A DNA stretch of 64,000 bases from Corallincola holothuriorum (GCF_003336225.1 NZ_QPID01000006.1:104207-168206), one strand, 5' to 3'. Shown: positions 19,636 to 60,424, numbered from the stretch's first letter. Translations and numbers: made by a program. The notes: generated by a model from the sequence alone, not told the origin.

Positions 19636-19672
19636 TGGGTAACCTTACTGGCGCTTGTTGTCGCTCAGGGCA

Positions 19673-19861: not shown

Positions 19862-20228
19862 CGCTATACCCTCCTGTTTATCTGCAAAGGGAGCTGGTAA
19901 TTGCTTTCCCTAGTAGTTTTGACAGGCAGAACCCATGAATTACTGCATCGCGGAGCTAATTATTCTTACTGTGCAGAACAGTCGATGTGGACTTGATAGT
20001 GCAAGTTACCTGAGATCGTGGAAATCCAATTGAATGATGAAATCCTTTCTGAATTAAGCAAATGCTAACATTTTCAGATGGTTTTCATTTCCTGATGACA
20101 GTGCTAGTCTTCACAATCTAGCAATTTTAATGGATTTTCAGCCCAAGCAGTGGGCCAGGTGAATGTCACAGGGAATGTGAAGGAAATGCCAAATCGAAGC
20201 AACAAGCTCCTTTTTTTAAGGAGTGTCA

Positions 20229-22547: not shown

Positions 22548-22561
22548 GAGAACGAACAGTG

Positions 22562-23395: not shown

Positions 23396-23424
23396 TTCCT
23401 CCATTGGTGTACTTGTTAGAAACT

Positions 23425-23453
23425 AAAAAGCGGACATGGTTGTCCGCTTTTTT
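23425..23453 (+). terminator. Rho-independent terminator (agcggaca-tggt-tgtccgct + T6)
   Basis: 8-bp GC-rich stem followed by six T residues directly after immunity paralog 1. Confidence 0.75.
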
Positions 23454-23505
23454 GATGAAAATTATGTTTGCCATTGTAATTAACTCGTAGTTTTGAATAA
23501 GTTGA

Positions 23506-24339
23506 ATGATGATAGGAAGACATTATCAAGAAACACACACTCATTTACTTCAGAAGGCGTTGGATAAGTTCGAAAAACGTCTGCCAAGGAAAATAAATAG
23601 TATAAAGAAGGAAGATGATGGAGAGTTGCTAGGCTCTTCTATTTCACAAACTGTAAATGTCTTTTGTGAATCTATAGTGGCTGAGAAAGATCATCTAACC
23701 ATATTACGTTTTTTAACTTTTGCTAAAGAGCTGGGTGCAGCAAATTTTGCTTCTGTGATGAGGATGGAAGAAACCTTTGATGTGCATCTCTTAGGTGAAA
23801 CCATTACGCTAACAGGGGCTCATAAGGCCTGTCATGTCGATACAGACGTATGGCTAAAAAGTTTTTATTGTGCACAGATATTACGGGATAGTGCTGCTAT
23901 CGATGTCCTAAATGAGGTGGATGAAACGGTCTTTTTTGCGGCCGAAATTAAACCTGATGCGTTGGATCTGCGCATAGTGGACTTGATGCAGGGTATTTAT
24001 AAGGGCCATAAAGAACTTACTACCTTGCTGAATAGTGCACTCCAGGCGGAGCCTGAAGATAGCCGTTTAAGTTATGCCTTTCATCTATTAAATCCGCTTC
24101 TTTCTATTATTCGCACTATTTTTACGCCAGGTGCGGACGCTGAATTCAATAAAGAGGTGCGTGAAGCGGTAGAGCTGCATAAAAAGTACTGGGGTCAGGA
24201 AGATGAGAAATGGGCAGCCCGCGGTTGGGTGTCATTGCCGTTAATCGCCATGGCGGCGCTGGCGTATGATCACAAAGGCTACGAACTGGATTTTGAAACC
24301 GATTACATTCCTGACTGGTTAGTGAAAAAGCAGTTTTAA
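23506..24339 (+). CDS. Putative cognate immunity protein, paralog 2
   Basis: 277 aa, roughly 65% identical to paralog 1 over the whole length; the last ~40 aa are identical to paralog 1. Confidence 0.5.
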   Translation: MMIGRHYQETHTHLLQKALDKFEKRLPRKINSIKKEDDGELLGSSISQTVNVFCESIVAEKDHLTILRFLTFAKELGAANFASVMRMEETFDVHLLGETITLTGAHKACHVDTDVWLKSFYCAQILRDSAAIDVLNEVDETVFFAAEIKPDALDLRIVDLMQGIYKGHKELTTLLNSALQAEPEDSRLSYAFHLLNPLLSIIRTIFTPGADAEFNKEVREAVELHKKYWGQEDEKWAARGWVSLPLIAMAALAYDHKGYELDFETDYIPDWLVKKQF

Positions 24340-24368
24340 TTCCTCCATTGGTGTTCTTGTTAGAAACT

Positions 24369-24397
24369 AAAAAGCGGACATGATTGTCCGCTTTTTT
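24369..24397 (+). terminator. Rho-independent terminator, duplicate copy
   Basis: aaaaagcggacatgattgtccgctttttt. It differs by one base in the loop from the copy at 23425..23453. Confidence 0.75.
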
Positions 24398-24437
24398 GAT
24401 GACAAGTGATGCGAAATTTATCAGTGCATTTTGTTAA

Positions 24438-25595
24438 TCAACCCACAATCACATGGGGCACAAAACGGCTGGTGTCTTTGGTGATCAAACTATTATCCTC
24501 CCGTATCGTTAGGCCGGCGGCTTCGTGGCCGACCACCCAGCTACCGATGAGGGTAAAGCTCTCGTTAAAGCGGGGCAGGGGGCTGAGAGATTGGTAGATA
24601 TAGCCCTCTTCACCGTACTCACCGCCGACGGCCAGTGTGGGTTTGCCATCTTCTATCAGTGAGATATTTGCGCCTTCACGGCTAAACAGTGGCTTTTTAC
24701 AGTAGCTGTTGCCTAAATCGGCCTTTTGTTCACCTTCAAAATAGGATGGCAGCAAGTTGGGGTGGCCTTTATGAAATTGCCACAACAGGGGCAATATCCC
24801 CTTATTGCTCAGGATCGCTTTCCAGGCGGGTTCGACAAAGCGGGTTTTCGATTTTGCTAAGTAATCACTGAAAGGATCCGTGAGCATCCACTCCCAAGGA
24901 TAGAGTTTGAACAGGCAACTTATCTCGTAGTCGTCGAGATCGGTAAACTGACCTTTGGTGTTAACGCCGATATCTTCGACATAGATAAAGCGTGTTGCGA
25001 CTCCGGCTTGCTGAGCGCAATCTTCCAGATATTCGACGGTTGCCCGATCTTCGGTACTGTCCTGACAACAGGCAAAGTGCATTTCACCATCAGAGGGGAT
25101 CTTTGCCATCTGGGCGATCAGCTTTTCCTGGATAGAATTAAACTGGTCAGTGCTACGTAACAGGGTGCCGGCTTTGACCTGATCTTCGAGCCAGATCCAT
25201 TGGAAGAAAGCGGCTTCGTAGATGGAGGTTGGTGTATCAGCGTTGTATTCAAGTAGCTTGGCAGGGCCGTTGCCGTTGTAAGCAAAGTCCATTCGCCCGT
25301 ACAAACTCGGCTCTTTGAAGCGCCATGAATCAAGAATGAGTTGCCACTGATGCTTGGGGATCTGGAGTTTTGTTAGCCAATACTCATCGCGAACAACTTG
25401 CTCAACCAGATCCATGCAGAGCGCTTCTAGCTCGTTGGTAGGATCTTCAAGATCCCGTTCAATCTGCTGGAGCGTGAATTGATAGTAGTGGTTTTCGTCC
25501 CAGTAGGGTTCGCCATCAATGGTATGAAAGTCGAACCCATACTGGTTAGCACGTTGCAGCAGATTAGGCCGCGGTGCACAGGCGATACGTAGCAC
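24438..25595 (-). CDS. Glutathionylspermidine synthase-family protein (E. coli YgiC/YjfC-like ATP-grasp amide ligase)
   Basis: GTG start. Collinear from memory with E. coli YgiC: YGFDFHTIDGEPYW...LEYNADTPTSIYEAAFFQWIWLED...SREGANISLIE. Confidence 0.85.
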   Translation of the reverse strand: MLRIACAPRPNLLQRANQYGFDFHTIDGEPYWDENHYYQFTLQQIERDLEDPTNELEALCMDLVEQVVRDEYWLTKLQIPKHQWQLILDSWRFKEPSLYGRMDFAYNGNGPAKLLEYNADTPTSIYEAAFFQWIWLEDQVKAGTLLRSTDQFNSIQEKLIAQMAKIPSDGEMHFACCQDSTEDRATVEYLEDCAQQAGVATRFIYVEDIGVNTKGQFTDLDDYEISCLFKLYPWEWMLTDPFSDYLAKSKTRFVEPAWKAILSNKGILPLLWQFHKGHPNLLPSYFEGEQKADLGNSYCKKPLFSREGANISLIEDGKPTLAVGGEYGEEGYIYQSLSPLPRFNESFTLIGSWVVGHEAAGLTIREDNSLITKDTSRFVPHVIVG

Positions 25596-26188
25596 TAACT
25601 ACCCCAGCCGCCGCGAGCCGCTGTTTTAGAACCAAAACCACCACGGCTGACCGTCGCGGCTTTTTTGCCATACTGGCCAGAACTGCGTTTAATTTGGCCG
25701 GAGTTATTTGGTACTGTTGTCATGATAGAGCGCGGTAATTTACTGGCTCGGCCAGTGCTGCCGTAGCTACCTACCGGATAGTTATTACTGGTGCGGTACA
25801 TGCCCCAGTCGTCACGTGAACGGTATAAGGGGCGTGAATAAGCGCTACGATAATAGAGGCTATTGCCTACATCGCGAGCGATCATCGACATCATGTAACC
25901 GGCCATGAAGGGCTGCCAAAAGCCGCTGCTGCGTGATGGCTGGCATTGCTCTGCACCAAAGTCCATTTCACAGTTGTACCGGCTATCGTAGCGTGGTGCT
26001 TCCAGTTGGTTTGCCGCTACTGCTTTTTCGTATTGATACTCGCAATCGCTGGCTTCAAACAAGCCGCTGGCCTTGCACTCTGCCACACTTTTAAAAGTTA
26101 CGATCTCTTCTTGTGGCTCGCTACAGCCTGTCACCATGCCGCCAGCGAGTCCCATCAGAGTAAGTTTGACTGTACGGGAACGTTTCAT
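25595..26188 (-). CDS. DUF1190-family lipoprotein (YgiB/YjfM-like)
   Basis: Lipobox VTGCS. FWQPFMAGYMMS block and Gly/Ser-rich C-terminus as in YgiB. Its TAG stop overlaps the GTG of the downstream gene by 1 nt. Confidence 0.7.
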   Translation of the reverse strand: MKRSRTVKLTLMGLAGGMVTGCSEPQEEIVTFKSVAECKASGLFEASDCEYQYEKAVAANQLEAPRYDSRYNCEMDFGAEQCQPSRSSGFWQPFMAGYMMSMIARDVGNSLYYRSAYSRPLYRSRDDWGMYRTSNNYPVGSYGSTGRASKLPRSIMTTVPNNSGQIKRSSGQYGKKAATVSRGGFGSKTAARGGWGS

Positions 26189-26200
26189 TTTGACGCTCCT

Positions 26201-26605
26201 CTAGTAGGTCATACAGGCAGCGTTCAAAATACCGGTTGCCAATGCGCAGCAACCAAGGAATACACCCGCAGGCAGCTCATTGGCAGTTAGGCGCTCAGTC
26301 AACCGTGGCATATAGAAGCGGACAGTAAAGTAGGTTAATAGCTGAGTTACCATGGCAACGCCACCCCAGATAATAAAGTCGATGACACCCACAGAGTTGA
26401 TGGCTGCACTGGCAACAGGGATGGTGAAACCCACGACGGTTAGACCAAAGGCAACTGCCGCAGCACTGTTGTTTTCGCGCATTAAGGTCCATTCACAGTG
26501 TGGTGTTGCTTTGGTATAGATGGCGGTAAACAGCAGGATCATTACGTAGCCGCTGACGAAATAGAGGGCAAAAGCAGGTAAACCCTGAAGGGATTCCATA
26601 AACAT
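26201..26605 (-). CDS. DUF350-family small membrane protein (YjfL-like)
   Basis: 134 aa with 4 TM helices, matching YjfL topology and length. Position is conserved in the yjf cluster. Confidence 0.55.
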   Translation of the reverse strand: MFMESLQGLPAFALYFVSGYVMILLFTAIYTKATPHCEWTLMRENNSAAAVAFGLTVVGFTIPVASAAINSVGVIDFIIWGGVAMVTQLLTYFTVRFYMPRLTERLTANELPAGVFLGCCALATGILNAACMTY

Positions 26606-26695
26606 AGTTATTCGCTTCCTTAATTGTTTAAATTTGACGCTGATTCTTTGTGTTATAACGACCGGATATTGTTCATCTAGGCCGTTGGGTTATCT

Positions 26696-27352
26696 TTAGC
26701 TGATCACTCTAAATTGCGACGGTGATAGGTTGACGCCAAGGGCGTAACTAAGCATGCGCTCATTGTCACCGCTCTCCTCGGCATTAATCAATAGTAATTC
26801 GTTGATATCGTCGTTAATGCCTCTTTCATACAGCATACAGAAGTTATCAACGCTATAACGTTCGCCGGCTTTGTTTTCTACCTTTTCAGTCATGGCCACC
26901 GGAGGCACATTACCGTCGTTATCGCCAAAAAATACCCGTTGGAATTCGCGGTCACTGTGTTGAAAGGTCGGGGTACCAATAAAGTCGGCGGCGATCACTT
27001 TTTCCCACTCCGCTTTGGTTGCGATGGCGTTGCTCTTATCGTAAACAAACAGCAATACATCTTCGACATTATGTTCAGTTTCGTCGCCGCTGTAGTTTAT
27101 CTGGATAAAAGCATCGTCGCTGGTGTAGTAACGCAGCATATAAGACCCTGCGCCAAGAGAGGTACGGCTAATCGCTTCAATTAATTGCGTGTCGCCCGGA
27201 AACTCCATCTTTAATTCGTCACCGAGTACGCGAAAATCCAACGAGCTTAGCTCTACGGCACAACCCAGGTGCAAACCAAACAAGCCTTTTTCTGGCTGCT
27301 TGGGTGCTTCCTCTTGCTTCTTTTTACCGAACAGATCTTTGAAAAAATTCAT
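26696..27352 (-). CDS. DUF2491-family protein (YjfK-like)
   Basis: 218 aa soluble protein starting MNFFKDLFGKKK.... Assigned by its position between the DUF350 and PspA-like genes. Confidence 0.45.
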   Translation of the reverse strand: MNFFKDLFGKKKQEEAPKQPEKGLFGLHLGCAVELSSLDFRVLGDELKMEFPGDTQLIEAISRTSLGAGSYMLRYYTSDDAFIQINYSGDETEHNVEDVLLFVYDKSNAIATKAEWEKVIAADFIGTPTFQHSDREFQRVFFGDNDGNVPPVAMTEKVENKAGERYSVDNFCMLYERGINDDINELLLINAEESGDNERMLSYALGVNLSPSQFRVIS

Positions 27353-28434
27353 GATGCTTTCTCCGGGGCTAATGCTGACCAGTTAACGCTCGACTCTGTT
27401 AAGCGTTGGGCGGCAATATAATATAGCGTTACGCCTGAGCTGAGTGGTTTGTTCATCGCCGGGTTGATCTCCACTTCGCCTTGAGTGCTATGGTCGGCCA
27501 CGGCAATCAAGGTGGCATCATGTTGCTGTTTTAGGTAGATAAATAGCTCGCCAAAACTTGCGGTCGGTGCATTAACTGGAATAGTTAATGAAAACTGCGT
27601 GGCACCGTCGAGCGTATTCATCAGTTGTTCAAATACTCGGCTGGAGCCGGGATCTTGCATGGAACGTGTCAGCAGCTCAGCCTCGCGTGAGGTACTGACT
27701 TCGATATGGGGATAAGCCGTTTCTACTAGTTGCGCCATCGATTCACTTTCAAAGTAAGCGCAGACATGGGTGGAATCTGGCTGAGTCAATGCGCCAACCC
27801 TTAAAGCGATGGCCAAAGTCTCTTCGTCACTGTCGCCATCAATTATTACTTTATCCGCTTCTTCAATTCCAGCTCTCTGCAATGAACTAGGTTCAGAATA
27901 GCTTTCAACGCGAATAAAGTTAACTTCAATACGGTCAGGGCAGGGGTGTTCCATCTCATCTGTCACGCATAGAAGGATCTGACGTTGTTGGCGGTTTTTA
28001 TCACCCAGTATCAGTTCGATAATCTTTAGTGTCTGCATCGGCGTCCAGCCGATCAACACAATGTGATTAGACAGATGCCCGAAATCACGTTCACCTTTCA
28101 TGGTTTGCTCCCACATTAGCGAGATAGTAGTGGCAAGTTTGCCGATAAATGAACCGAATAGACCTAAACCGAGGGGGATAACCCACAGTGTGACAGCCCA
28201 CATGCCAGAGGCACTCTCCGGCGAATAATCGCCGTAACCTACGGTAGATATGGTGACCATAAACCAGTAAATATAACGGCTGAGGTTTTCGGTTAATGCG
28301 GTTTCGCCTGCCAAATAAAGCAAGGCATAAGAAGTGACTGCGTGACCAACGACAAGGCCGGCAAGTGCCGGCCAAGTTAGTGAACGCAGGTGTTGATTGA
28401 GGCGCAGGCTAGCCCAGCGCAACCACCACTGCAT
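27349..28434 (-). CDS. Potassium channel (2-TM pore with TVGYGD filter) fused to a cytoplasmic RCK/TrkA-like domain
   Basis: TISTVGYGDYSP selectivity filter between two TM helices; C-terminal ~230 aa is soluble. Its stop overlaps the start of the downstream DUF2491 gene. Confidence 0.7.
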   Translation of the reverse strand: MQWWLRWASLRLNQHLRSLTWPALAGLVVGHAVTSYALLYLAGETALTENLSRYIYWFMVTISTVGYGDYSPESASGMWAVTLWVIPLGLGLFGSFIGKLATTISLMWEQTMKGERDFGHLSNHIVLIGWTPMQTLKIIELILGDKNRQQRQILLCVTDEMEHPCPDRIEVNFIRVESYSEPSSLQRAGIEEADKVIIDGDSDEETLAIALRVGALTQPDSTHVCAYFESESMAQLVETAYPHIEVSTSREAELLTRSMQDPGSSRVFEQLMNTLDGATQFSLTIPVNAPTASFGELFIYLKQQHDATLIAVADHSTQGEVEINPAMNKPLSSGVTLYYIAAQRLTESSVNWSALAPEKAS

Positions 28435-28449
28435 GGTAATCGTCCTTTA

Positions 28450-29136
28450 TTAGCCTGCTTGTTTTGCTTTCAGTCGCTCTAACACGGAGTTAGCTGAGGA
28501 AGTAGAACTACCGATCCCAGCGTCCTTGAGTTTTTTCTCTAGTTCATTGCCGTCGTCAGATAACTCTTCCGCTGCTTCAAGTTTAGCTTGCTTCTCTGCT
28601 TGCTTATTCTTGATGCGCTGCAGTGAATCTGCGGCATTGGCTACTTTTGAGTTGGCATTGATACTGGTTGCAGCGATCTGCTCTTGTGCTTTTTGTACTG
28701 CTTCGGTCGCTTTCACCTGCGCCAGTTGACGCTCCATTTCCGCTAACTGTTTCTTGCTTTTAGCGATAGTGGTTTCGATACGGGCAAAATCAGCCTTAAT
28801 TGTATCCAGATGCGCTTTGTCTTCAGTGAACTGAGTTTCCAGCGCTGCAATTTTTTCTGCCACTTCGCCAGCCAAGGCTTCATCACCTTTGCTTAGGGCT
28901 TCTACGGCAAAGTTTTCATATTTGCTGATCTCTGCTTGCAACTTGTCCACCTTAGATTCAGCCAGTTTCTTCTTACCTGCTAAATCAATACGGCTACGAC
29001 CTGCTACGTCCATTGCCTGGCGTGCGTCGCGGATATGCTGCTCCAGCAAACGGATTGCTTGAGCGTCGGTAAATTCTTCTTCCATCTCGGCTTTGATAGC
29101 ACGACCGAAAGTAAACAGTTTCTTAAATAAACTCAT
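28450..29136 (-). CDS. PspA/IM30-family protein (YjfJ-like)
   Basis: LEQHIRDARQ, a long coiled coil, and VKATEAVQKAQEQ align with E. coli YjfJ/PspA. Confidence 0.8.
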   Translation of the reverse strand: MSLFKKLFTFGRAIKAEMEEEFTDAQAIRLLEQHIRDARQAMDVAGRSRIDLAGKKKLAESKVDKLQAEISKYENFAVEALSKGDEALAGEVAEKIAALETQFTEDKAHLDTIKADFARIETTIAKSKKQLAEMERQLAQVKATEAVQKAQEQIAATSINANSKVANAADSLQRIKNKQAEKQAKLEAAEELSDDGNELEKKLKDAGIGSSTSSANSVLERLKAKQAG

Positions 29137-29148
29137 GATAAATTCCTC

Positions 29149-29577
29149 TTATTCGGCTGCAGGGTGACGGGCAATTTGATCTTCACACGCTTCGGCAACG
29201 GTTAATACGTTATCTGCCAAGCTAGTGAGTTCCAGCATTACGTTTTCTATGGTTGATGTCGCACTCAGCGCACCAAATAGGACGTAATGGTCCTCGCCGT
29301 TAATGGTTTCAATGGCAACGGTAGAAAGCGGCAGGTACTTATGGTTGCGAAGGAACTCATCGTTCAACGCTACCTTGTCCTTAACTACTGCAACCGGAAA
29401 CAATACAGACTCCATCAACATCTGATCTTCAGAGATGCTGATAACGACGGGCAGGTCACCCTGCTCATGCATGGTGGCTGCCAAGCAGTCGCCTACCAAA
29501 GATACAGTTACCTCTCCAGAAGTAATCGCATCAAGTTCGTACATCGCGTCTAATAAAGTTTGTGTAGTCCAGCTCAT
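29149..29577 (-). CDS. DUF2170-family protein (YjfI-like)
   Basis: 142 aa acidic protein at the head of the cluster, in the position yjfI occupies in E. coli. Confidence 0.5.
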   Translation of the reverse strand: MSWTTQTLLDAMYELDAITSGEVTVSLVGDCLAATMHEQGDLPVVISISEDQMLMESVLFPVAVVKDKVALNDEFLRNHKYLPLSTVAIETINGEDHYVLFGALSATSTIENVMLELTSLADNVLTVAEACEDQIARHPAAE

Positions 29578-29769
29578 GATTCACTCCGTGTTATGGGTGC
29601 TGGCGAACCAGCCACTTAAGGATGTTCTCAAAAATAATAAATGTCAACTATATTCAACATTTGTTTTGTTTTGTTGCTTTTTGGTTCGTATTGACCAATA
29701 CTCATATCATTCACAATATGTAATGATTGAGCGCGCAAACATGCGTGATGAAATTACTAAGGAAACACT

Positions 29770-30036
29770 ATGACAACAGATACGCCTCCTGCGTTCGATT
29801 CTGTTATTAAACGCCTGGTGAGAACCATGATGGCGCAAAGTGGTATGACGTACGCTGAACTGAGTAAACAGTTATACCTGCAGTTCGGAACGACACAGTT
29901 GGACAATAATCTGAGGTCGAAGGTTAACAAAGGCAAGATGTCTGCGGATCTTTTTATTCAAATTTTGTCTGTGTGCAAGTTTTCGGTGTCACCTGAGATA
30001 GTTAAGCAGGTGATAGAAGCCACCCAGTCGCAATAA
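29770..30036 (+). CDS. Small putative helix-turn-helix DNA-binding protein
   Basis: AAGGAAA Shine-Dalgarno plus ATG. 88 aa containing an HTH-like segment (MTYAELSKQLYLQFG). It is the first gene of the plus-strand block. Confidence 0.35.
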   Translation: MTTDTPPAFDSVIKRLVRTMMAQSGMTYAELSKQLYLQFGTTQLDNNLRSKVNKGKMSADLFIQILSVCKFSVSPEIVKQVIEATQSQ

Positions 30037-30180
30037 TTTGTTTCATTTTTTAGTCATAGAATAATGTTGATCTAGGCCGCTTCTTTAGCAAAAGCCTAAC
30101 AAAAAGGTGGAGGCTATCGGTTAGTATGTCGGCTTGTTTTTTATCTCCCGCTTGTATCAAGCAGAGGGGAATAATTAATA

Positions 30181-30233
30181 CATACATGATGTATGTGAAT
30201 GGATAGTTGTTTCATAAGCACGCGTGTTTATGA
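30181..30233 (+). promoter_or_regulatory. Two inverted repeats upstream of the yqiJ-like gene (candidate operator sites)
   Basis: catacat-g-atgtatg at 30181..30195 is a perfect 7-bp inverted repeat with a 1-nt spacer. tcataagcacg/cgtgtttatga at 30212..30233 is an 11-bp inverted repeat with one mismatch. They lie 40-90 nt upstream of the ATG at 30271. Confidence 0.35.
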
Positions 30234-30270
30234 GTAGGTCGCCTGACGGCCTCCAAAGGAAGGAGTACAT

Positions 30271-30915
30271 ATGGATGTTTTCTTAGCGCACCTGATTCAA
30301 TTTCCCACGGTTATTTACACCGTTTTACTCGGTGTCATGCTCTGCTATTGGTTTGTTGCCGCATTGGGCACCGTTGATGTTGACGTATTAGATATCGACA
30401 TTGATGTTGATGCGGATGTCGGCGCCCTAGAAGGTTTTGCCGGATTGCTACTGAGATTGGGGTTGGCGGGTGTGCCTTTAACTGTCGTGCTGACAGTGAT
30501 TGCACTCACAGGTTGGAGTATCTGCTACTTCTCCATGTTGCTGGTGATTAATCCTTTGTTTTCGTTCTCTGGTGTATTGCAGTGGGTATTAGGTGCCGGT
30601 GTAGCCATGGTGGCTTTTGTTGCCTCCATTTTTATCGCCGCGCAAATCGTTAAGCCTCTGCGACCTTTGTTTAAGTCAGCGAATGCGACATCTACCAACG
30701 ATTTGGTGGGTTCAAAAGTAGTTATACGCACCTCAAAAGTGACTCCTACATTTGGCGAAGCCACATTGGAAGATGGTGGCGCGGGCATGGTATTGCGCGT
30801 GCGGGCCGACGAAACTCAAAACTTAACTCGCGGCGATATTGTCGTGATCCTCGAATACCTGCCGGAAACACATGCCTATCGCGTGATGACCGAGGCAGAA
30901 CTGTTTAAGCAATAA
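30271..30915 (+). CDS. YqiJ/NfeD-like inner membrane protein with C-terminal OB-fold domain (flotillin partner)
   Basis: GGAAGGAG Shine-Dalgarno. 4 TM helices, then a soluble beta-rich C-terminus (GSKVVIRTSKV...GDIVVILEY). The architecture and the downstream flotillin mirror E. coli yqiJK. Confidence 0.6.
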   Translation: MDVFLAHLIQFPTVIYTVLLGVMLCYWFVAALGTVDVDVLDIDIDVDADVGALEGFAGLLLRLGLAGVPLTVVLTVIALTGWSICYFSMLLVINPLFSFSGVLQWVLGAGVAMVAFVASIFIAAQIVKPLRPLFKSANATSTNDLVGSKVVIRTSKVTPTFGEATLEDGGAGMVLRVRADETQNLTRGDIVVILEYLPETHAYRVMTEAELFKQ

Positions 30916-30970
30916 CTCAATTTAGAAACCAATTTTCGTACAAATTTAATTTGAAAAAGGAATATTCAAT

Positions 30971-33031
30971 ATGCCTATAGATATGGGTCTAGCAATGGGT
31001 GTACTTACCATCATCGGTGTTATTTTTGGCGTCATATTCGTACTTGCGATGATGTTTAAAGCGTTTTACGAGAAAGTGCCCCAAGGAACAGCGTTGATTG
31101 TGAATGACATGAGTTCAACGCCAAAGGTGAAGTTCACCGGCGGTATGGTGATCCCCGTTATCCACAAGAAAGAGCTGATGAAGATCTCTTTAATCACTCT
31201 GGAAGTGGATCGAAGAGGACGTGATGGTTTGATCTGCCGCGACAATATGCGTGCGGACATTACCGTGGCTTTCTACCTGCGCGTTAATGAAACCCAGGAA
31301 GATGTATTGAAGGTCGCTAAGGCGATTGGCGTAGAGCGTGCGTCTGACAAAGCGGCGGTGAATGAGTTGTTTAACGCCAAGTTCTCCGAAGCGCTGAAAA
31401 CCGTCGGTAAGCAGATTGAGTTTGTACGTTTGTTTGAAGATCGTCTGACCTTCCGTGAAAAGATTGTTGAGGTGATTGGTGATGATCTTAACGGTTACAT
31501 TCTTGAAGATGTTGCCATCGATTACTTAGAACAAACACCAAAGAGTGCCTTAGATCCTACCAATATTTTGGATGCTCAGGGCATACGAAAAATTACCGAG
31601 CTGACGGCAACTCAGAACGTGCAAACCAACGAGTTTGAGCGTAATGAAGAGTTGGCGATCACCAAGAAAAACGTGGAGACCAAAGAGTCTATGTTGGCGT
31701 TAGAGCGTCAACAAGCGGATGCCGAAGCGCGCCAGGCTCGAGAAATAGCCACGATCCAAGCCCGTGAAGAAGCTGAAACCATTAAGGTCAGTGAAGAGGA
31801 GCGTCTGCGTTCTGAGCAAGCTCGTATTAAGACGCAGCAGGATCTTGATATTCAGGAAGAGAATCGTAAGCGTGAAGTAGAGATTGCGGTCGAAAATCGT
31901 CAGCGTGCCGTAGTGATTGAGAAAGAAAAAGTAACGCGGGCGCAGGATCTGGAAGTGGTCTCCCGCGAGCGTGAAGTTGAGCTTGAGCGTATCGCCAAAG
32001 AAAAAGACCTGGAAGTTGAGCGTACCAATATTGCTAACGTGACCCGTGAGCGTGTGGCAGTAGAGAAAACAGTGGCTGAAGAGGAGGAGCGTATTAAAGA
32101 GGTGCGTGAAATCTCAGAAGCTGACCGCTCTAAGCAGGTGTTGATCTTAGAGGCGCAGGCGCAAGCCGAAGAGGAGCTGGTTAAGCAGGTTAAGCAGGCC
32201 GAAGCCGATGAAACCAAAGCCAAGCATAAAGCCGTTGAACTGAATGTACTGGCGCAAGCTGAACTGGAAGCGGCAGCGAAGAAAGCCGATGCGATGAAAC
32301 GTATGGCTGAAGGTATTGAAGCGGAACGTGCGGCGCCAGGGTTTGCTGATGCCCGTGTGCAGGAAGCAAAAGCAGAAGCACTTGAGAAAGAAGGTGCTGC
32401 TGAAGCACAAGTACTCGCGAAGAAGATGGAAGCTCAGGCCCAAGGTGATGAGCAGCAAGGGTTGGCGAAAGCCCGTGTGATTGAAGCGCAAGCGATTGCC
32501 AAAGAGAAAGAGGGGCTGGCCGAAGCCAAGGTGCTGGAAGAGAAGCTGGGTGCCCAAGCCAAAGGCGACGAACAGCAAGGTCTCGCAGAAGCCGCCGCAG
32601 AAAAAGAGAAAGGTTTGGTGGCTGCCACAGTTATTCGCGAGAAATTGACCGCAGAAGCTGAAGGTTTAGTGGATAAGTTCAAGGCGATGGATGCTATGAG
32701 CGATCAGGCGCGCAGCCACGAAGAGTTCCGTATGCAGCTTGAGAAGCAGTTTGAAGAAGCGATTGCGTCTATCGGCGCGAGCAAAGAGATCGCCAAAGAG
32801 CAGGCTGAAGTTCTGTCTGCTGCGTTGTCGAATGCCAATATCGACATCGTTGGCGGTCAGGGCGAGTTCTTTGATTCGTTCGCCAAGTCTCTGTCTGTTG
32901 GTAAATCAGTTGAAGGGATCGTGGGTAAAAGCCCCGTGGTGCAGGAGCTGTTAAGTAAGGTGATGGCGCTGGGTGGCGGGAAAGGGGGCAAGAAACCTTC
33001 TAGCTCAACCTCATCAACCGATCTGTTGTAA
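30971..33031 (+). CDS. Flotillin / SPFH (band-7) family protein, YqiK-like
   Basis: N-terminal TM helix and SPFH domain (VPQGTALIVN...). Long EA-rich coiled coil with internal flotillin-type repeats (EGLAEAKVLEEKLGAQAKGDEQQGLAEA appears twice). Confidence 0.85.
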   Translation: MPIDMGLAMGVLTIIGVIFGVIFVLAMMFKAFYEKVPQGTALIVNDMSSTPKVKFTGGMVIPVIHKKELMKISLITLEVDRRGRDGLICRDNMRADITVAFYLRVNETQEDVLKVAKAIGVERASDKAAVNELFNAKFSEALKTVGKQIEFVRLFEDRLTFREKIVEVIGDDLNGYILEDVAIDYLEQTPKSALDPTNILDAQGIRKITELTATQNVQTNEFERNEELAITKKNVETKESMLALERQQADAEARQAREIATIQAREEAETIKVSEEERLRSEQARIKTQQDLDIQEENRKREVEIAVENRQRAVVIEKEKVTRAQDLEVVSREREVELERIAKEKDLEVERTNIANVTRERVAVEKTVAEEEERIKEVREISEADRSKQVLILEAQAQAEEELVKQVKQAEADETKAKHKAVELNVLAQAELEAAAKKADAMKRMAEGIEAERAAPGFADARVQEAKAEALEKEGAAEAQVLAKKMEAQAQGDEQQGLAKARVIEAQAIAKEKEGLAEAKVLEEKLGAQAKGDEQQGLAEAAAEKEKGLVAATVIREKLTAEAEGLVDKFKAMDAMSDQARSHEEFRMQLEKQFEEAIASIGASKEIAKEQAEVLSAALSNANIDIVGGQGEFFDSFAKSLSVGKSVEGIVGKSPVVQELLSKVMALGGGKGGKKPSSSTSSTDLL

Positions 33032-33128
33032 GCCCTATGGCAAGCGTCTTTGTGCGGAGTTAAATCCGCATTAGGACGGTCAATATGGCTGGCCAGTTTC
33101 ACCTGACGTCTCAGGAACACATCATGGG

Positions 33129-36100
33129 ATGTCAGGGTGGCCAAACTGTTTCGACAGCACGCAGGGAGTACACAGGGTGCAGGATAAAAACCAAGATAAA
33201 CAAGGCGCTGAAGCCGGTATCGTTGATAAGGCGGTGACTGAAGGTGGCGCTTATGAAGTGATCCGTAAGCGCTTGGAAGGGCAAGGGAAGCAGCTTCGAG
33301 AAGAAGTCGATGCCCTTAACCAGTCACGTATCAGTGAGTTTGGTAGTACCGAAATGAAAGTGCTGGGGCGTTTGCGTACCCGCACGGAAAATAACTGTAT
33401 TGCCCAGGATATCGTCTGCGTTGGCGAACACCTGCTGTTTGGCTTCAACGTGTTTATGGGGCTAAAAAAAGAGACTCACATCAGTGATGTATTTGCCCTC
33501 TATCATTTCCAAAAAACTGCTGATGGCTTTGATTTAGAGCCCGCGCGCAGTGACGATACGTTTTTGGCCAATGCAGCCTTTGTGCGTGAGTTTAATGAAC
33601 TGTACGCCTATTACAAAAATACTCGTTTGTCGCAGCTGGTGGTCAAAGATGGCAAGTTACTAGCCAGCTTCCAGATCGGCGAACGGGAAGAAGATATTCG
33701 TGTGTTTCGTTGGTCGATCAGTGCAGATGGCAAACGTGTAGAGTATATCGACAACCGTGGTGAGCGTGATATCGCCTTGCCATCGGCTTATGATTTTGAA
33801 TGGCAGGCAACCAGTCGTGAGAATGCTGTTCATGGTAAACATCCACACCTGAATATTCTCGATACCCTGTTTGTGGAAACGGTCGGTGGTGATCTGACCG
33901 TTAAGATAGAAGACAACACCGCGTCCGGAGAGGGGATCTACGCCGAAGCTGTGGTGGATCAGACCCAGTCGCTGGATGACGCCGATGTGTTTTATGCCGA
34001 GGTCGGCCACCTGATACTGCTAAAAATCTTGCCTTATCGAGAAGAGACCTGGCGCTACTTGTTATTTAACAAGCTGACCCATGAAGTGTTGCGTGTCGAT
34101 GCTATTGGTCAGGCATGTCGGCTGTTGCCGGAAAATCACGGCATTATTTTCCCTGGCGGCATTTATCTGGAATCAGGCGGGCTTAAACTGTTTGATGAAG
34201 ACATGACTGGCATGCGTTTCCGTCGTGTGCGCCGTTCGCCCAATGGCGAAGATGCCATGTATGTGTTCTACAACCCTGAGAACGCAACGATCGCCTTGTT
34301 TGCGTACAACCTGATTGAGAAAAGCCTGCAGGTGCCGTTACTTGGCCATGGTTACGCCATGCTCGATGATGGCACCATGGTGATTTTCTATGCCGAAGGG
34401 GATGAGCCAACCCGCGTGCATCCGATGCAGGTTTGGGAAACGCCCTATTGCAGTGATGAGCACGCCAGTAAAGCACCGGTGAAAGACAGCGTCTATGGCC
34501 GCATTGGCAATGCTGAATTAGTGCGTGCTATTTCCGATTTTTACAGTGTATGCCGTGCCGTGGATGAGCAATCCGTGTCGGCGCGTTTATATGATGAACT
34601 GTGCAAAAATACCTTGCGCCTGTTTGATAGCTACTACTGGTTGGACAATCAGGAAGTACAGGGGATCTCAGATCTGCTACACGAGATTGCCAAAACCAGT
34701 GAACTGGTGCTGGATGAGTTTGAAAAAGTAGAAAGTATTCGTCAGCAGTCAGAGTTGGCAATGGCTGAGGCGGAACAACAGCAAAAAGCGCTGCTCAAAT
34801 CGATGAATGTCGATAGTTGGCACAGCGCTGAAGCTTTTGTTGATGCCCTCGACAGCATTCGCAAACTGCGCGGTCACTTACTGACGATCCGTGACTACCG
34901 CTATATCAATACCTCACGTATTGATGAGATGGAGCAGCAGCTACAAGAAACCGGTGACAAGATATCACTGAAGACCGGCGAATTTCTCTCTTCAGCTGAA
35001 GCCATTGCCCCCTACCATGATCGTCTAGGGACGCTGGAGCAGGCGCTAGCCGATGCGAATTCGATTGTAGAGCTGGAGGCACCTGTCGCCGGACTCGAAA
35101 AGATGGCTTCAGAGCTGGATCTGCTATCTGAGCTGATGACCAGCCTGAAAGTGGATGACGCACAGCAGCGTACCGCCATTGTTGAGGCGATCTCTGAGGT
35201 TTACGCCAAGTTAAATCAGAGCCGTGCCCGTGCCGGACACAAGCAAAAAGAGCTCGGCTCGGCAGAAGCTGTGGCTGAGTTTTCCGCGTCGTTTAAGTTG
35301 TTTTCTCAAGGTATTACCAATGCCCTGAGTGCGGCCACCACGCCGGAGAAGTGTGATGAGCAGCTGACGCGCTTGCTGGTGCAGCTAGAAGAGCTGGAGA
35401 GCCAGTTCAGTGAGCATGACGAGTTCTTGGCCGATATTCTTTCCAAGCGGGAAGAAGTTTACGAAAGCTTTGAGGCGCAGAAACAAGCGCTACTTGATGA
35501 GCGCCAGCGCAAGGCACAGAACCTGCAGGATGCCGCCAGCCGTATTCTCAGTAACATTCAAAAACGGGTACAGCGTTTCACCGAGCCTGATGAACTGAAC
35601 AGCTTTTATGCCGCCGATCCGCTGGTGATGAAAGTACGGGAGATCAGCGAGCAGTTGCGCGGACTCGATGATCAGGTGAAAGCCGATGATATCGATGCTC
35701 GTTTTAAGATGGGTAAAGATCAGGCGCTGAAATCGCTGCGAGATAAGAGCGAGATCTATGAAGAGGGCGGTAACGTCATCAAGCTGGGACCACGGCACAA
35801 ATTTAGTGTGAATACCCAGCCGCTAGATATCACTATCTTACCGCGTAATAACCAGCTTAATTTCCACCTCACCGGTACCGACTATTTCGAGCCAGTAGAA
35901 GATAAGCGGCTGGCTGAATTGAGCCAATACTGGCAGGCGGATATCGAATCTGAATCTGCTGAGATCTACCGCGCTGAATATCTGGCTGGATTGATCCTCG
36001 ATAGCGCTGATATGCATGAGCATGGCCTTACACCAGAGTTACTAAGCAGCGCTGCCAGTGAGCAAGAGGCGCTGGTTAAGATCGCCAGAGAGTTTGCTGC

Positions 36101-38549
36101 GCCAAGATATAAAGAGGGCTATCAGAAAGGGGTTCATGACCATGATGCTGCGCTGATCCTGGCCAAAGTGTTGCCTTTACGGCAAAGCGTCGGCCTGTTG
36201 CGGTTTGATCCGCTGAGTCGTGGTTTAGCGATTATCTTTTGGGCTAACAATCAGCAACAAGCTTGGGCGAAAAGCTGCCCACAGCGGGCACGCTCGGCAT
36301 TGACTATGCAAACCCTGTTTGCCAGTGGCGAAGCACTCGTTTTACTGGAACAGGAGCTGCTGAGTCAGCTGAATAGCTATCTTGAATTGCATACCATTCC
36401 GGTCAGCCAGAGCGACTGCCAACGTGCGGTGAGCTATTTGGTGCGTGAGCTGGCCAACGACAGGGTGGAGTTTGAAACCAGTAAGTACGCCCGTCAGTTG
36501 GCAGATGAGCTAAAGCAGTCTCTTAAAGCTGGCAAAGCGCTGCGCACATTTGAAGAAGCATTGCAGCAGTTGGTTGGCAAAGCGGGGGAGCGCTGGGCGT
36601 TAACCTACAGCTGGTTAACCGCGATGTTAGCCAGTAAGAAAGCAGGCGCCGCGGATACAGCGGAGGCATTAGCCGCCTACGTTCCTGAAGCCGTGGCGAT
36701 CATTAACGCCGAAGAGAGAGTTTCCCGTCGTCACAGCGAAGCGGATCTTAATTTCAGTGTGGATGGCCTCTTGGGTGAACATAGCCGCATTGACAGTCAG
36801 TCACTGCAGTTGCGCTTGGATAGCTTCCTAACCAACTATCAGCTGCACAGAGATCAGTTTGTGCCGGCCTATCATGAGTACCTCAATACGCGACAGCAGG
36901 TGATCAGCGATCGTCGTAAACAATTAAAGCTGCATGAATTTGTTTCGCGACCACTTAGTTCATTTGTTCGTAACCAGCTGATTAATCAAGTTTACCTACC
37001 AATTATTGGCGATAACTTGGCGAAACAGATGGGCACCGTGGGCGAAAACAAGCGCACCGACTTAATGGGCTTGTTGATGATGATCTCGCCGCCCGGTTAC
37101 GGTAAAACCACGTTGATGGAGTATGTGGCGAACCGGCTGGGTTTGATCTTTATGAAGATCAACTGTCCGTCGCTGGGGCATGAAGTGGATTCATTGGATC
37201 CAACGCAAGCGCCCAACGCTACCGCGAAGCAGGAGCTGGAGAAGCTCAACCTGGCGCTGGAGATGGGCAATAACGTGATGCTGTATCTTGATGATATTCA
37301 GCATACCCACCCCGAGTTCTTGCAGAAATTTATCTCCTTGTGTGACGGTACCCGTCGTATTGAGGGGGTATGGCGTAACGAATCAAAAACCTACGATATG
37401 CGCGGCAAGAAATTCTGTGTGGTGATGGCGGGCAACCCATACACTGAATCCGGCGAAGTGTTTAAGATCCCCGACATGTTGGCGAACCGTGCCGATATCT
37501 ACAACTTAGGTGAGGTGCTTGGCGGCATGGAAGCGCCGTTTGCACTGAGCTATATCGAAAACAGTCTGACCTCGAATCAGGTGCTGCAACCGCTAGCAAC
37601 CCGAGATATGCAGGATCTGTATCGCTTTGCCAAAATGGTAGAAACCGACACCATCAATACCAATGACCTTAGCCATAGTTATAGTGGCGCCGAGGTTAAT
37701 GAGATCCTGGATGTGCTGCGTAAATTGATGGTGGTGCGTGATGTGCTGCTGAAAGTAAACAAGCAATACATCGTTAGTGCCTCCCAGGCGGAAAAATACC
37801 GTACCGAGCCCGCGTTTAAGTTGCAGGGTTCATACCGCAACATGAACAAGATGGCGGAGAAGATCTCGGCGGTGATGAACGACGCCGAGCTAAAACAGGT
37901 GATTGCTGATCATTATCTCGGAGAGGCACAACTACTTACCGGCGGGGCGGAAGAGAACCTATTAAAACTGGGTGAAATGCGCGGCACACATACTGATGCA
38001 GAAGCGGCTCGTTGGCAGCAGATCAAGGCCGACTTTGCCCGTAGTAAAGCGATGGGCGGCGACGATGCCGATACTGGCATGCAGGTGGTTGGACAACTGC
38101 ACGACTTAGTTAGCAGCGTAAAAGGCGCGGCAGAACTGATGGTCAATAAGCCGGAAGTTGCGGATAGCGGTAGCGAGCAAACCTCACAAGCGATCGTTCA
38201 GTTGTCAAAAGAGCTGTCTCAGGCACAACAAGCGGCTAGCGATCGTCATATTGAAGTGGTTGAAGCACAGCACTCGGCATCCCGTGCCAAGTTCAATAAG
38301 TCGGCCCGCGCTTTTCTGACGTTGTCGAAGGTGTTCGCCAAAGCGTTATCCCGTGTTGAAGTGGTGAATCAGCCCATTCCTGGGTTAGAAAATCAGCTGG
38401 CGACGCTAACTCAGAGCTTGCAAACCATTGCTCACTCGTTGGCGCCAGATGATAACGATCAGATCCAGATCTTGTTGCGTAATATTGGCAAGTTGGAGCA
38501 TGAATTAGCCGCGCTTAAAGGCGGTAAGCAGAGTGCAGAGGATGCATGA
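33129..38549 (+). CDS. Giant multidomain protein (1806 aa) with a C-terminal-proximal AAA+ ATPase module; function unknown
   Basis: Approximate architecture: aa 1-480 beta-rich, 480-1300 alpha-helical, ~1320-1480 AAA+, then a ~300 aa helical tail. Walker A ISPPGYGKTT, Walker B VMLYLDDIQH, sensor-1 VVMAGNPY and RADIY are contiguous, which is AAA+ and not an SMC/ABC layout. An alternative in-frame GTG start at 33177 follows an AGGGAG Shine-Dalgarno. Confidence 0.7.
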   Translation: MSGWPNCFDSTQGVHRVQDKNQDKQGAEAGIVDKAVTEGGAYEVIRKRLEGQGKQLREEVDALNQSRISEFGSTEMKVLGRLRTRTENNCIAQDIVCVGEHLLFGFNVFMGLKKETHISDVFALYHFQKTADGFDLEPARSDDTFLANAAFVREFNELYAYYKNTRLSQLVVKDGKLLASFQIGEREEDIRVFRWSISADGKRVEYIDNRGERDIALPSAYDFEWQATSRENAVHGKHPHLNILDTLFVETVGGDLTVKIEDNTASGEGIYAEAVVDQTQSLDDADVFYAEVGHLILLKILPYREETWRYLLFNKLTHEVLRVDAIGQACRLLPENHGIIFPGGIYLESGGLKLFDEDMTGMRFRRVRRSPNGEDAMYVFYNPENATIALFAYNLIEKSLQVPLLGHGYAMLDDGTMVIFYAEGDEPTRVHPMQVWETPYCSDEHASKAPVKDSVYGRIGNAELVRAISDFYSVCRAVDEQSVSARLYDELCKNTLRLFDSYYWLDNQEVQGISDLLHEIAKTSELVLDEFEKVESIRQQSELAMAEAEQQQKALLKSMNVDSWHSAEAFVDALDSIRKLRGHLLTIRDYRYINTSRIDEMEQQLQETGDKISLKTGEFLSSAEAIAPYHDRLGTLEQALADANSIVELEAPVAGLEKMASELDLLSELMTSLKVDDAQQRTAIVEAISEVYAKLNQSRARAGHKQKELGSAEAVAEFSASFKLFSQGITNALSAATTPEKCDEQLTRLLVQLEELESQFSEHDEFLADILSKREEVYESFEAQKQALLDERQRKAQNLQDAASRILSNIQKRVQRFTEPDELNSFYAADPLVMKVREISEQLRGLDDQVKADDIDARFKMGKDQALKSLRDKSEIYEEGGNVIKLGPRHKFSVNTQPLDITILPRNNQLNFHLTGTDYFEPVEDKRLAELSQYWQADIESESAEIYRAEYLAGLILDSADMHEHGLTPELLSSAASEQEALVKIAREFAAPRYKEGYQKGVHDHDAALILAKVLPLRQSVGLLRFDPLSRGLAIIFWANNQQQAWAKSCPQRARSALTMQTLFASGEALVLLEQELLSQLNSYLELHTIPVSQSDCQRAVSYLVRELANDRVEFETSKYARQLADELKQSLKAGKALRTFEEALQQLVGKAGERWALTYSWLTAMLASKKAGAADTAEALAAYVPEAVAIINAEERVSRRHSEADLNFSVDGLLGEHSRIDSQSLQLRLDSFLTNYQLHRDQFVPAYHEYLNTRQQVISDRRKQLKLHEFVSRPLSSFVRNQLINQVYLPIIGDNLAKQMGTVGENKRTDLMGLLMMISPPGYGKTTLMEYVANRLGLIFMKINCPSLGHEVDSLDPTQAPNATAKQELEKLNLALEMGNNVMLYLDDIQHTHPEFLQKFISLCDGTRRIEGVWRNESKTYDMRGKKFCVVMAGNPYTESGEVFKIPDMLANRADIYNLGEVLGGMEAPFALSYIENSLTSNQVLQPLATRDMQDLYRFAKMVETDTINTNDLSHSYSGAEVNEILDVLRKLMVVRDVLLKVNKQYIVSASQAEKYRTEPAFKLQGSYRNMNKMAEKISAVMNDAELKQVIADHYLGEAQLLTGGAEENLLKLGEMRGTHTDAEAARWQQIKADFARSKAMGGDDADTGMQVVGQLHDLVSSVKGAAELMVNKPEVADSGSEQTSQAIVQLSKELSQAQQAASDRHIEVVEAQHSASRAKFNKSARAFLTLSKVFAKALSRVEVVNQPIPGLENQLATLTQSLQTIAHSLAPDDNDQIQILLRNIGKLEHELAALKGGKQSAEDA

Positions 38550-39250
38550 TGAGTGAGTTAAGCGTATTAGAAAAACAACTGATTGATAGCTTCGATGATC
38601 TTAAGCTCAGTGACAGTGAGCGGGCGGAGCTGAAGGAGCTTGCTCGACCATTAAGCGCAGATAAAGTGAGATTTATTCGCAACAAAGCGTTTGCTATTGC
38701 CCGTGACAAAATTGCTACGGCTAGTGGAGATGATAATGCTGCTGAAGCGTTGTCGGCGCTTGGTTGGCTGGAGCGGGTGGTGAAAACCCTTGATCAGGCC
38801 ACGCGCAAACAAGCGATCACCTCGGGAGCTTATTTCAGCCCAGGCACGGCTTGCATGAAGAAGATCGTTGACCTTTGTCACCAAGCCAAGCGCAACATTG
38901 ATATCTGTGTCTTTACTATCTCAGATGATCGCCTCAGCGCTGCGATTAAGAAAGCCCATGATCGCGGCGTGCAGGTGCGGATCATCACGGATAATGATAA
39001 AGCCAATGACAGTGGCAGTGATGTTGACCAGTTAGCCAGACAAGGGGTGCCGTTGCGTATGGATCGCACTGAATACCATATGCACCACAAGTTTGCGTTA
39101 TTTGACCGCGTAACCTTGCTTAACGGCAGTTTTAACTGGACCCGCAGCGCGACAGATAAGAACGAAGAGAACATTTTGGTGACGGACAGTGAAACGCTAT
39201 GTGCTTCCTATCTGGAACAGTTTGAGCGTTTGTGGCAGAAGTTCGCCTAA
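38546..39250 (+). CDS. Phospholipase D-family nuclease (single HKD motif, Nuc/Zucchini-like)
   Basis: Single HxKx4D...N motif (HMHHKFALFDRVTLLNGSFNWTRSA) in a ~150 aa PLD core after a ~90 aa helical N-terminal extension. Its ATG overlaps the TGA of the giant gene (ATGA). Confidence 0.8.
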   Translation: MMSELSVLEKQLIDSFDDLKLSDSERAELKELARPLSADKVRFIRNKAFAIARDKIATASGDDNAAEALSALGWLERVVKTLDQATRKQAITSGAYFSPGTACMKKIVDLCHQAKRNIDICVFTISDDRLSAAIKKAHDRGVQVRIITDNDKANDSGSDVDQLARQGVPLRMDRTEYHMHHKFALFDRVTLLNGSFNWTRSATDKNEENILVTDSETLCASYLEQFERLWQKFA

Positions 39251-39307
39251 TATAGCCTGCTATTGATATGAGCGGGTGAGAGTTGATAAAGGTAGCAGTA
39301 AATCAAA

Positions 39308-39745
39308 ATGAATAAACAGAATTCAGGAGAAGAAGCGATGCGCGGAGCAGGCGGAACCAGCGGTGGGGTGGGGCAATTCTTTATTGGCTTGGTAATGATG
39401 TGTGGCGGTTTTTATATGCTGTTTAATGCCATTACAGTGCGCTCCAGCTTTGGTATGCGTACCTCTCTATACTCCTTTGGCTCAGGCTGGGGAATCACCA
39501 GCGGTATGGTGATGATCCCGTTTATCTTTGGTATTGGGCTTATTTTTTACAACAGCAAAAATATCCTTGGTTGGATCCTAACCATCGGTTCACTGGTGGC
39601 GCTTATCTTTGGCGTGATCTCCTCGATAAACTTCAGCATGCGTACCATGACCTCATTCGATCTCATTGTGATCTTAGTGTTGTCCGTTGGTGGCGTAGGC
39701 TTGTTTTTGCGCTCGCTAAAAGGGCTGCCGGAAGTAAGTGAATAG
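39308..39745 (+). CDS. Small 4-TM membrane protein, last gene of the operon
   Basis: AGGAGAAG Shine-Dalgarno. 145 aa with Gly-rich hydrophobic helices. Followed by a terminator. Confidence 0.45.
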   Translation: MNKQNSGEEAMRGAGGTSGGVGQFFIGLVMMCGGFYMLFNAITVRSSFGMRTSLYSFGSGWGITSGMVMIPFIFGIGLIFYNSKNILGWILTIGSLVALIFGVISSINFSMRTMTSFDLIVILVLSVGGVGLFLRSLKGLPEVSE

Positions 39746-39778
39746 TATTCGATGATAGGCTAACTTATAGCGATACAA

Positions 39779-39804
39779 GGGCACCACCTACGGTGCCCTT
39801 TTTT
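39779..39804 (+). terminator. Rho-independent terminator (gggcacc-acctac-ggtgccc + T6)
   Basis: 7-bp GC stem with a T-run. It closes the plus-strand operon. Confidence 0.8.
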
Positions 39805-40299
39805 CTGGTTGCTCGTGGGTTCTCTCTGTTACATCTGTGGTTACCCCATTTTCATCTCAATCACACGCTCTTTACTAAGGTGCTTGAGCATCGTTTCTTC
39901 GTTTCACCGATATAGGTGGCTTTGTGTTATCTACCTGCTACCGTCGAATTCGTTAGCGCAGGCGTGATTTTTCTCCTATTTGGTATTACTTCTTTGATAC
40001 CAATTTCTGTGGCTTATTTTTGTAGGTTAGATACGTTAAAAGAGACTGATAGGGCTTAATTTAGTTGTGTGACTGATAGGTGTGAAGGTTGCTCTTGTGT
40101 TTGTAACTTGCTGAATTTAAAGTGTAAAAAAACCTGACACCGGAAAATAGCTTAAACTAAATTAGTTTGTTTATCATGTTGTTATGAAGAACGTCATCAA
40201 ATGGTTGATTTGGGGCATTCTATTTAATATTAGCTTGCTATAAGATGCGCAAAAATTAGGCATTTTATAACAAGAAAATAACAAGTAGGTGAAGTAGCT

Positions 40300-59087: not shown

Positions 59088-59095
59088 ATATCCTC

Positions 59096-60421: not shown

Positions 60422-60424
60422 AGA

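Follow-up and report, generated by a model that had tools for sequence, protein, structure and literature searches.

The gene block and its boundaries

The window examined here, a stretch of 64,000 nucleotides from Corallincola holothuriorum (GCF_003336225.1, NZ_QPID01000006.1:104207-168206; all positions are counted from its first letter), carries a block of five open reading frames (ORFs) encoding, in this order, a YqiJ-like protein, a flotillin, a giant ATPase, an enzyme of the phospholipase D (PLD) superfamily and a small membrane protein with four transmembrane (TM) segments. The first four genes belong to a described class of PspA-associated flotillin/AAA+ operons and probably make up a membrane-maintenance module; the fifth is a resident neighbour.

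The ORFs span 30271-39745 on the + strand, exactly as an earlier note on this sequence had placed them. They encode a YqiJ/NfeD-like inner-membrane protein of 214 aa (30271-30915), a flotillin/YqiK-like SPFH protein of 686 aa (30971-33031), a giant cytoplasmic ATPase of 1806 aa (33129-38549) and a single-HKD PLD-superfamily enzyme of 234 aa (38546-39250), which would be of the BacC, BacD, BacE and BacF types, respectively, and finally the 4-TM protein (39308-39745), which lies outside the module. The gaps between them are 55, 97, -4 and 57 nt, the negative value being an ATGA overlap of the PLD gene start with the stop of the giant gene; the spacing reported earlier was the same except for the first gap, given as 56 nt. 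No terminator-like match was found on the + strand inside the three intergenic gaps of the block. An intrinsic-terminator-like hairpin (9-bp stem with 6 GC pairs, and a T-run) is present at 39777-39800, 3' of the 4-TM gene, and the AT-rich stretch of some 500 nt said to follow the block is there as well (39801-40299, GC content 0.367 versus 0.479 for the whole window). Since homologues were found for all five ORFs, and an NCBI protein of Corallincola spongiicola matches the giant at 100% identity, these are real genes.

Proteins encoded by the block

Taken singly, the window proteins of ORF1, ORF2 and ORF5 gave no match in Pfam, NCBIfam or PADLOC. Scanning 26 family members with Pfam brought a marginal gain (YqiJ_N matched 6 of the 26 members of the YqiJ-like family), and homology was settled by comparing profiles: family alignments were made from the related loci and aligned to E. 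coli YqiJ and YqiK with hhalign. The flotillin family profile matches YqiK with a probability of 99.9% (E = 2.2e-33, 31% identity over 407 columns) and the YqiJ-like profile matches YqiJ with a probability of 93.4% (E = 2.5e-7). Judged from these profiles, ORF1 and ORF2 are remote homologues of YqiJ and YqiK, as the earlier note had recognized. The Pfam models Band_7, Flot and NfeD mostly miss both families, which therefore appear to form a divergent branch of the yqiJK-like pair. The E. coli yqiJ-yqiK genes stand in the same order as their counterparts in the window but are a pair only, without the giant ATPase, the PLD enzyme or an adjacent PspA, all of which the window has; DNA searches found no similarity of the block to E. 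coli genomes or plasmids.

Hydropathy predicts about three TM segments in the YqiJ-like protein (at ~11-37, 55-94 and 99-130), followed by a C-terminal beta-rich domain. The flotillin would be anchored by an N-terminal TM (one hydrophobic segment, residues 1-36), which precedes the SPFH domain and a long Ala/Glu-rich coiled coil; it shares 50-88% identity with homologues from other orders. When the sequences of the PDB were searched with profiles of the giant, flotillin and YqiJ-like families, no match came up.

The giant is an AAA+ protein, as had been proposed. Pfam finds DUF3686 (aa 56-503, E = 7e-200), DUF7902 (aa 624-708) and one AAA/AAA_5 module, which is single and divergent (aa ~1300-1660); helical regions lie between DUF7902 and this module. 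The AAA+ motifs, encoded at 37089-37508 on the + strand, are invariant across 16 and 36 homologues. They comprise a Walker A motif, PPGYGKTT (aa 1321-1328), a Walker B motif, VMLYLDDIQH (aa 1383-1392, window 37275-37304), a sensor-1 region, VVMAGNPYTESG (aa 1431-1442, with AGNPYTESG invariant), and a putative Arg finger, PDMLANRADIYNL (aa 1448-1460, with ANRAD invariant). The Walker B motif is of the form hhhhDD (LYLDDIQH), ending in Asp-Asp and not Asp-Glu, in all homologues aligned. No TM segment is predicted by hydropathy, and long helical or coiled-coil stretches are present. Similarity to active AAA+ enzymes is weak, that to E. coli RavA being not significant with hhalign, and a literature search found no mention of DUF3686. 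The giant retains 58-62% identity over ~1,800 aa across orders, and its N-terminal module occurs in about 930 protein clusters at 50% identity.

The product of the fourth gene had been called a PLD-family nuclease, of which the family assignment stands and the nuclease activity is not supported, a nuclease being only its nearest sequence neighbour. The protein matches PLDc_2 (Pfam, E = 2e-33) and has an intact, canonical HxKx4Dx6GSxN motif (aa 180-197, nt 39083-39136), preceded by an N-terminal helical extension of ~100 aa; hydropathy predicts no TM segment. NucT models score it at no more than 63 bits against cut-offs of 211-351, the NCBIfam DrmC equivalog at 39.8 against a cut-off of 133, and the DpdK model below its cut-off; in PADLOC the matches are weak (DrmC, 1.8e-11; MkoB, 2e-10). 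By these scores it is a member of the superfamily but not a NucT equivalog. DrmC of DISARM, DpdK of Dpd, MkoB/C of Mokosh and Nuc/NucT share its single-HKD PLD fold and are its best sequence matches, but it stays below the cut-offs of these families and the partner genes of those systems are absent here.

Conservation of the block across genomes

At least 583 stretches with relatives of the giant were found in a species-representative genome collection (one genome per species). We examined 80 of these loci, about 70 of which include the upstream DNA. In every locus with upstream DNA the YqiJ-like, flotillin and giant genes follow each other in this order on one strand, in hosts as different as Pseudomonas, Stenotrophomonas, Xenorhabdus, Gilliamella, Comamonas, Longimicrobium and Zetaproteobacteria; the trio is also present in Streptomyces and Deinococcus, and in Hymenobacter the order is Tir-like chaperone-PspA-DUF1449-flotillin-like-giant. 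Such constancy in the first three genes goes well beyond what chance would give. The giant being obligately tied to the flotillin pair, the shared function that the earlier note had read from the arrangement in one genome is a fair inference. Of the associations that it had envisaged for the homologues of the giant, that with flotillin holds throughout, that with PLD holds in part (the PLD gene lies 3' of the giant in 23 of 80 loci), and a location in defence islands is not seen in the flanks of the 25 loci that were scanned.

Other partners recur. Of the 80 loci, 39 have a YjfI-PspA pair immediately upstream in the same orientation (roughly 60% of those that include upstream DNA) and five more have YjfI alone, while in two loci (L053 and L063) the pair is divergent, as in the window. 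A rhomboid protease gene is found close to the giant in 21 loci, mostly directly downstream, and a Zn-ribbon protein and a small TerB-like ORF recur in some. These recurrent partners, PspA, YjfI and rhomboid, are membrane-stress proteins. On pQBR103, a conjugative megaplasmid of P. fluorescens SBW25 (L090, 1-12229), PspA, rhomboid, DUF2491, DUF350, DUF1190, glutathionylspermidine synthase, YqiJ-like, SPFH and giant genes are all co-directional, polyamine-type yjf genes thus standing in line with the trio, so that this cluster fuses two PspA operon classes that stand back-to-back in the window.

Two further arrangements were seen among the loci. In a Zetaproteobacterium and two Lampropedia species (L044, L047 and L052) there are 2-3.4 kb of extra DNA between flotillin and giant, and three Xanthomonadales loci (L029, L040 and L042) have a + strand ORF of ~1,340-1,370 aa upstream of the block.

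Relationship to described operons

The YjfI-PspA pair of the window lies some 690 bp upstream of the block on the opposite strand. It consists of YjfI, a DUF2170 protein resembling CesT/Tir chaperones (29149-29577, - strand, Pfam E = 6.5e-41), and YjfJ, a PspA/IM30 protein (28450-29136, - strand, PspA_IM30, E = 1.5e-40). With this pair begins a - strand operon, yjfI-yjfJ(PspA)-K-channel-yjfK-yjfL-yjfM-yjfC (24438-29577), in which yjfJ and yjfK are separated by an additional gene for a K+ channel (27349-28434; Ion_trans_2, and TrkA_N below threshold), as they are in C. platygyrae. YjfI and YjfJ are likely functional partners of the block.

The earlier note did not recognize the gene combination as any named system, but it is an instance of one. 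Ravi et al. 2024 described an operon that combines a CesT/Tir-PspA pair (yjfJ family), a band-7/flotillin protein, a novel AAA+ protein and a 3TM YqiJ/YuaF protein, to which a PLD (HKD) hydrolase is added in some Proteobacteria, and of which abbreviated versions lack the CesT/Tir-PspA pair (PMC11237479). All of the components listed for this class are found in or beside the block of the window: the 3TM YqiJ-type protein, the flotillin, the AAA+ giant and the downstream PLD are in place, and the YjfI-PspA pair is nearby but on the opposite strand.

By gene order the block also corresponds to the "biofilm-associated cluster" of P. aeruginosa, bacABCDEF (PA3732-PA3727, or PA14_16140-16200), for which RT-PCR (reverse transcription PCR) has demonstrated a single six-gene transcript and for which a σ54 site upstream of bacA has been proposed from sequence (PMC10948618). 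Mutants of bacA, a YjfI-family gene, over-produce BacB-F, and bacA and bacB mutants have defects in biofilm, rhamnolipid, swarming and virulence (PMC10948618). The order in P. paraeruginosa (L021) is YjfI > PspA > YqiJ-like > flotillin > giant > PLD > yaeQ > recJ, the YqiJ-like, flotillin, giant and PLD proteins being 46%, 74%, 60% and 52% identical to those of the window. Unlike in bac, the PspA pair of the window points away from the block and opens a different operon, and a search for a σ54 site was negative; the flanks are different too, and the host is a marine Alteromonadales-type gammaproteobacterium. The gene combination is therefore not new, and the Corallincola copy is a variant layout of it, in which the PspA pair is shared and divergent, rhomboid is missing and the cassette has relocated.

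Relocation of the four-gene cassette in Corallincola

The syntenic region of C. platygyrae runs from yjfC to PspA-DUF2170 and then through DUF6471 and the 4-TM gene to, further on, a lipase, an ion channel and an RND pump. The DUF6471 ORF also occurs in the window, where it encodes a small resident protein of 88 aa, HTH-like (helix-turn-helix), upstream of the insertion point (29770-30036, + strand, Pfam E = 9e-15); it is absent from all 80 related loci. In C. platygyrae DUF6471 is immediately followed by the 4-TM gene, whereas in the window the cassette stands between the two; the YqiJ-like-flotillin-giant-PLD block of C. platygyrae is on another contig (L001). In blastn comparisons the two species show the same divergence for the flanks (~73.5% identity) and for the block (74-76%), which indicates that the cassette is ancestral to both Corallincola species and moved as a four-gene unit. 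No direct or inverted repeats of at least 9 nt were found at the cassette boundaries.

The 4-TM gene had been counted as a member of the module, which does not fit these observations: it adjoins DUF6471 in C. platygyrae without the flotillin block, and its product, with four TM segments by hydropathy, belongs to a separate family (2169 matches, 70-84% identity across Alteromonadales) that has neither annotation nor Pfam domain and is found in unrelated contexts in Colwellia and Pseudoalteromonas. The 4-TM gene is part of the resident chromosome, as is the terminator, and neither belongs to the module. The hairpin at 39777-39800 is then the terminator of the 4-TM gene itself, and read-through to it from the cassette is possible. 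The 4-TM gene was also considered as a counterpart of the rhomboid gene of other loci and was rejected as such, the two showing no similarity and the former belonging to the family just described.

At the place of the AT-rich stretch 39801-40299, C. platygyrae has a 56-aa ORF and the gene of a 347-aa FAD-dependent oxidoreductase; the stretch is probably a deletion scar.

A probable membrane-maintenance module

We consider it probable that the block is a Psp-type membrane-maintenance module of the PspA-associated flotillin/AAA+ (bac) operon family, the individual steps of its action being less secure than the assignment as a whole. The assignment draws on gene content, homologies and synteny in the loci described above and, in P. 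aeruginosa, on the co-transcription, induction and mutant phenotypes reported in the literature. A comparable coupling exists elsewhere: like Snf7/ESCRT-III and Vps4 of archaea and eukaryotes, and like other bacterial pairs of PspA and AAA+ proteins, the loci studied here couple a protein of the ESCRT-III superfamily (PspA) genomically to an AAA+ protein. This suggests, by analogy and as argued by Ravi et al., ATP-driven remodelling of polymers at membranes; how PspA-type polymers that lack a dedicated ATPase are regulated is stated by the same authors to be an open question (PMC11237479).

In such a module, the YqiJ-like protein and the flotillin would form a membrane-anchored SPFH scaffold at the cytoplasmic face of the inner membrane, on which the soluble giant would dock by way of the beta-rich and coiled-coil parts of its N-terminal region. 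The one AAA+ module at its C-terminal end, or a ring of such modules, may then drive, at the expense of ATP, the assembly, remodelling or dismantling of flotillin and/or PspA (ESCRT-III-like) polymers at a stressed or damaged membrane. The divergent YjfI-PspA pair would supply a sealing polymer held by its chaperone, with YjfI acting both as chaperone and as regulator of PspA, and the cytoplasmic HKD enzyme could be an optional effector whose substrate would be a phosphodiester, a lipid or else a nucleic acid. What we infer from the genes and their relatives is the physical complex, the remodelling driven by ATP, and the substrate and role of PLD.

Several points weigh against the membrane-maintenance assignment. 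The giant and the PLD enzyme are known, in every organism, only from sequence. The identification of BacC-F with the families described here comes from the gene order in P. paraeruginosa and from one annotation string with a DUF3686 label, not from an alignment with the PAO1 proteins. The nearest relatives of the PLD are nucleases and PLDs of defence systems (NucT, DrmC, DpdK), a poor fit to a purely membrane role. The PspA pair of the window is divergent and not co-operonic with the block, and in C. platygyrae the cassette sits away from the PspA pair altogether, from which it follows that the link with PspA is not obligatory. Finally, the σ54 consensus TGGCAC-N5-TTGC, with up to two mismatches, is absent from 29578-30270, and its count across the window equals the chance expectation. 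A σ54 promoter and co-transcription, however, are features of P. aeruginosa, where the promoter is upstream of bacA, and may not be family-defining.

A more ambitious version of the same idea makes the giant the missing ATP-driven remodelling motor of a bacterial machine that repairs membranes with flotillin and PspA (ESCRT-III-like); it would be a functional counterpart of Vps4 on an AAA+ scaffold that is MoxR-like and unrelated, and the HKD enzyme would process lipids or nucleic acids at the lesion; in a variant, the machine would carry out a phage-triggered, membrane-based form of abortive infection. We offer it as a speculation that is rather unlikely to be right as it stands.

The earlier note had compared the block to membrane-associated defence or abortive-infection modules. 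In an anti-phage system of this kind the flotillin scaffold would sense the perturbation of the envelope by a phage, the giant would transduce the signal and the PLD, as a nuclease, would degrade DNA. This now appears improbable. The PLD enzyme does match the DrmC, MkoB/C and DpdK models, but weakly and, in the case of the DrmC equivalog, at less than a third of the cut-off; none of the other proteins (giant, flotillin, YqiJ-like, 4-TM) has a match in PADLOC-DB 2.0, and PLD, the only candidate effector, is missing from about two thirds of the loci. PA3728-PA3732 belonged to a set of 17 genes whose expression rose in every phage-infected sample, and were called phage shock proteins (PMC12041424), but induction by phage is what gave the Psp response its name and does not imply immunity. 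Also in favour of defence are protein identities that do not track taxonomy (the flotillin is 70-75% identical to those of Comamonas and Delftia and only 50-54% to those of Glaciecola and Paraglaciecola), which imply horizontal transfer, the change of place between the two Corallincola species and the copy on pQBR103. Against this, tblastn searches with the giant gave no match among 50,697 phage records and matches in 13 of 72,556 plasmid records, all of these either at least 169 kb long (megaplasmids) or really chromosomes; its level of identity across orders is atypical of fast-evolving defence genes, and in many Pseudomonas species the block keeps a stable position beside yaeQ-recJ. The genes beside the loci are also heterogeneous. 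For 25 loci, the two genes on either side (100 proteins) yield 132 different Pfam families, most of them housekeeping, with cytochromes, efflux pumps, fatty-acid synthases, GyrB and MutS as examples. Only about four of the 100 proteins match defence models, two of them MmeI-type type IIG restriction-modification enzymes, which would count for the defence idea. A literature search found no report linking flotillin, PLD and AAA+ together to anti-phage activity.

It is likewise improbable that the giant is a structural tether, a cytoskeleton-like coiled-coil protein with a catalytically dead AAA+ module that organizes flotillin microdomains without any ATP-driven remodelling. The invariant replacement of the catalytic Glu of Walker B by Asp, the long helical and coiled-coil stretches and the weak similarity to active AAA+ enzymes would all be expected of such a protein, but Walker A, the sensor-1 Asn and the candidate Arg finger are invariant too, which argues for selection on nucleotide binding and hydrolysis, and the catalytic base in some P-loop NTPases can be Asp.

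That the giant is a DNA-repair ATPase acting with a PLD nuclease, the flotillin genes being mere neighbours, is hardly credible: it would agree with the source annotations ("DNA repair ATPase"; "ATPase involved in DNA repair" in Pfam), with recJ and yaeQ downstream in Pseudomonas and with the resemblance of the PLD to Nuc/NucT nucleases, but no DNA-binding or repair domain was detected in the giant, a literature search found no experimental source for the database name, the linkage to recJ is restricted to Pseudomonas, and in all genomes examined the partners that never vary are membrane proteins.

Other features of the window

Two regions away from the block were also recorded. ORF 20223-22547 (774 aa, no Pfam match) is followed by two Imm49 immunity-protein genes (22559-23395 and 23506-24339); the whole of 19487-24440 is missing from the syntenic stretch of C. 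platygyrae and resembles a toxin/immunity indel. On the - strand, at 49932-62536, HlyD-family and ABC-exporter genes are followed immediately by an ORF of 3051 aa; together they probably represent a type I secretion system and its giant substrate.

Conclusions

The Corallincola locus shows that the YqiJ-like, flotillin, giant and PLD genes move as a unit and can sit back-to-back with a polyamine-type yjfIJ operon. The family to which they belong is spread over Pseudomonadota, Bacteroidota, Actinomycetota, Deinococcota and Gemmatimonadota, and in P. aeruginosa its operon has been linked to biofilm, to virulence and to the phage response.

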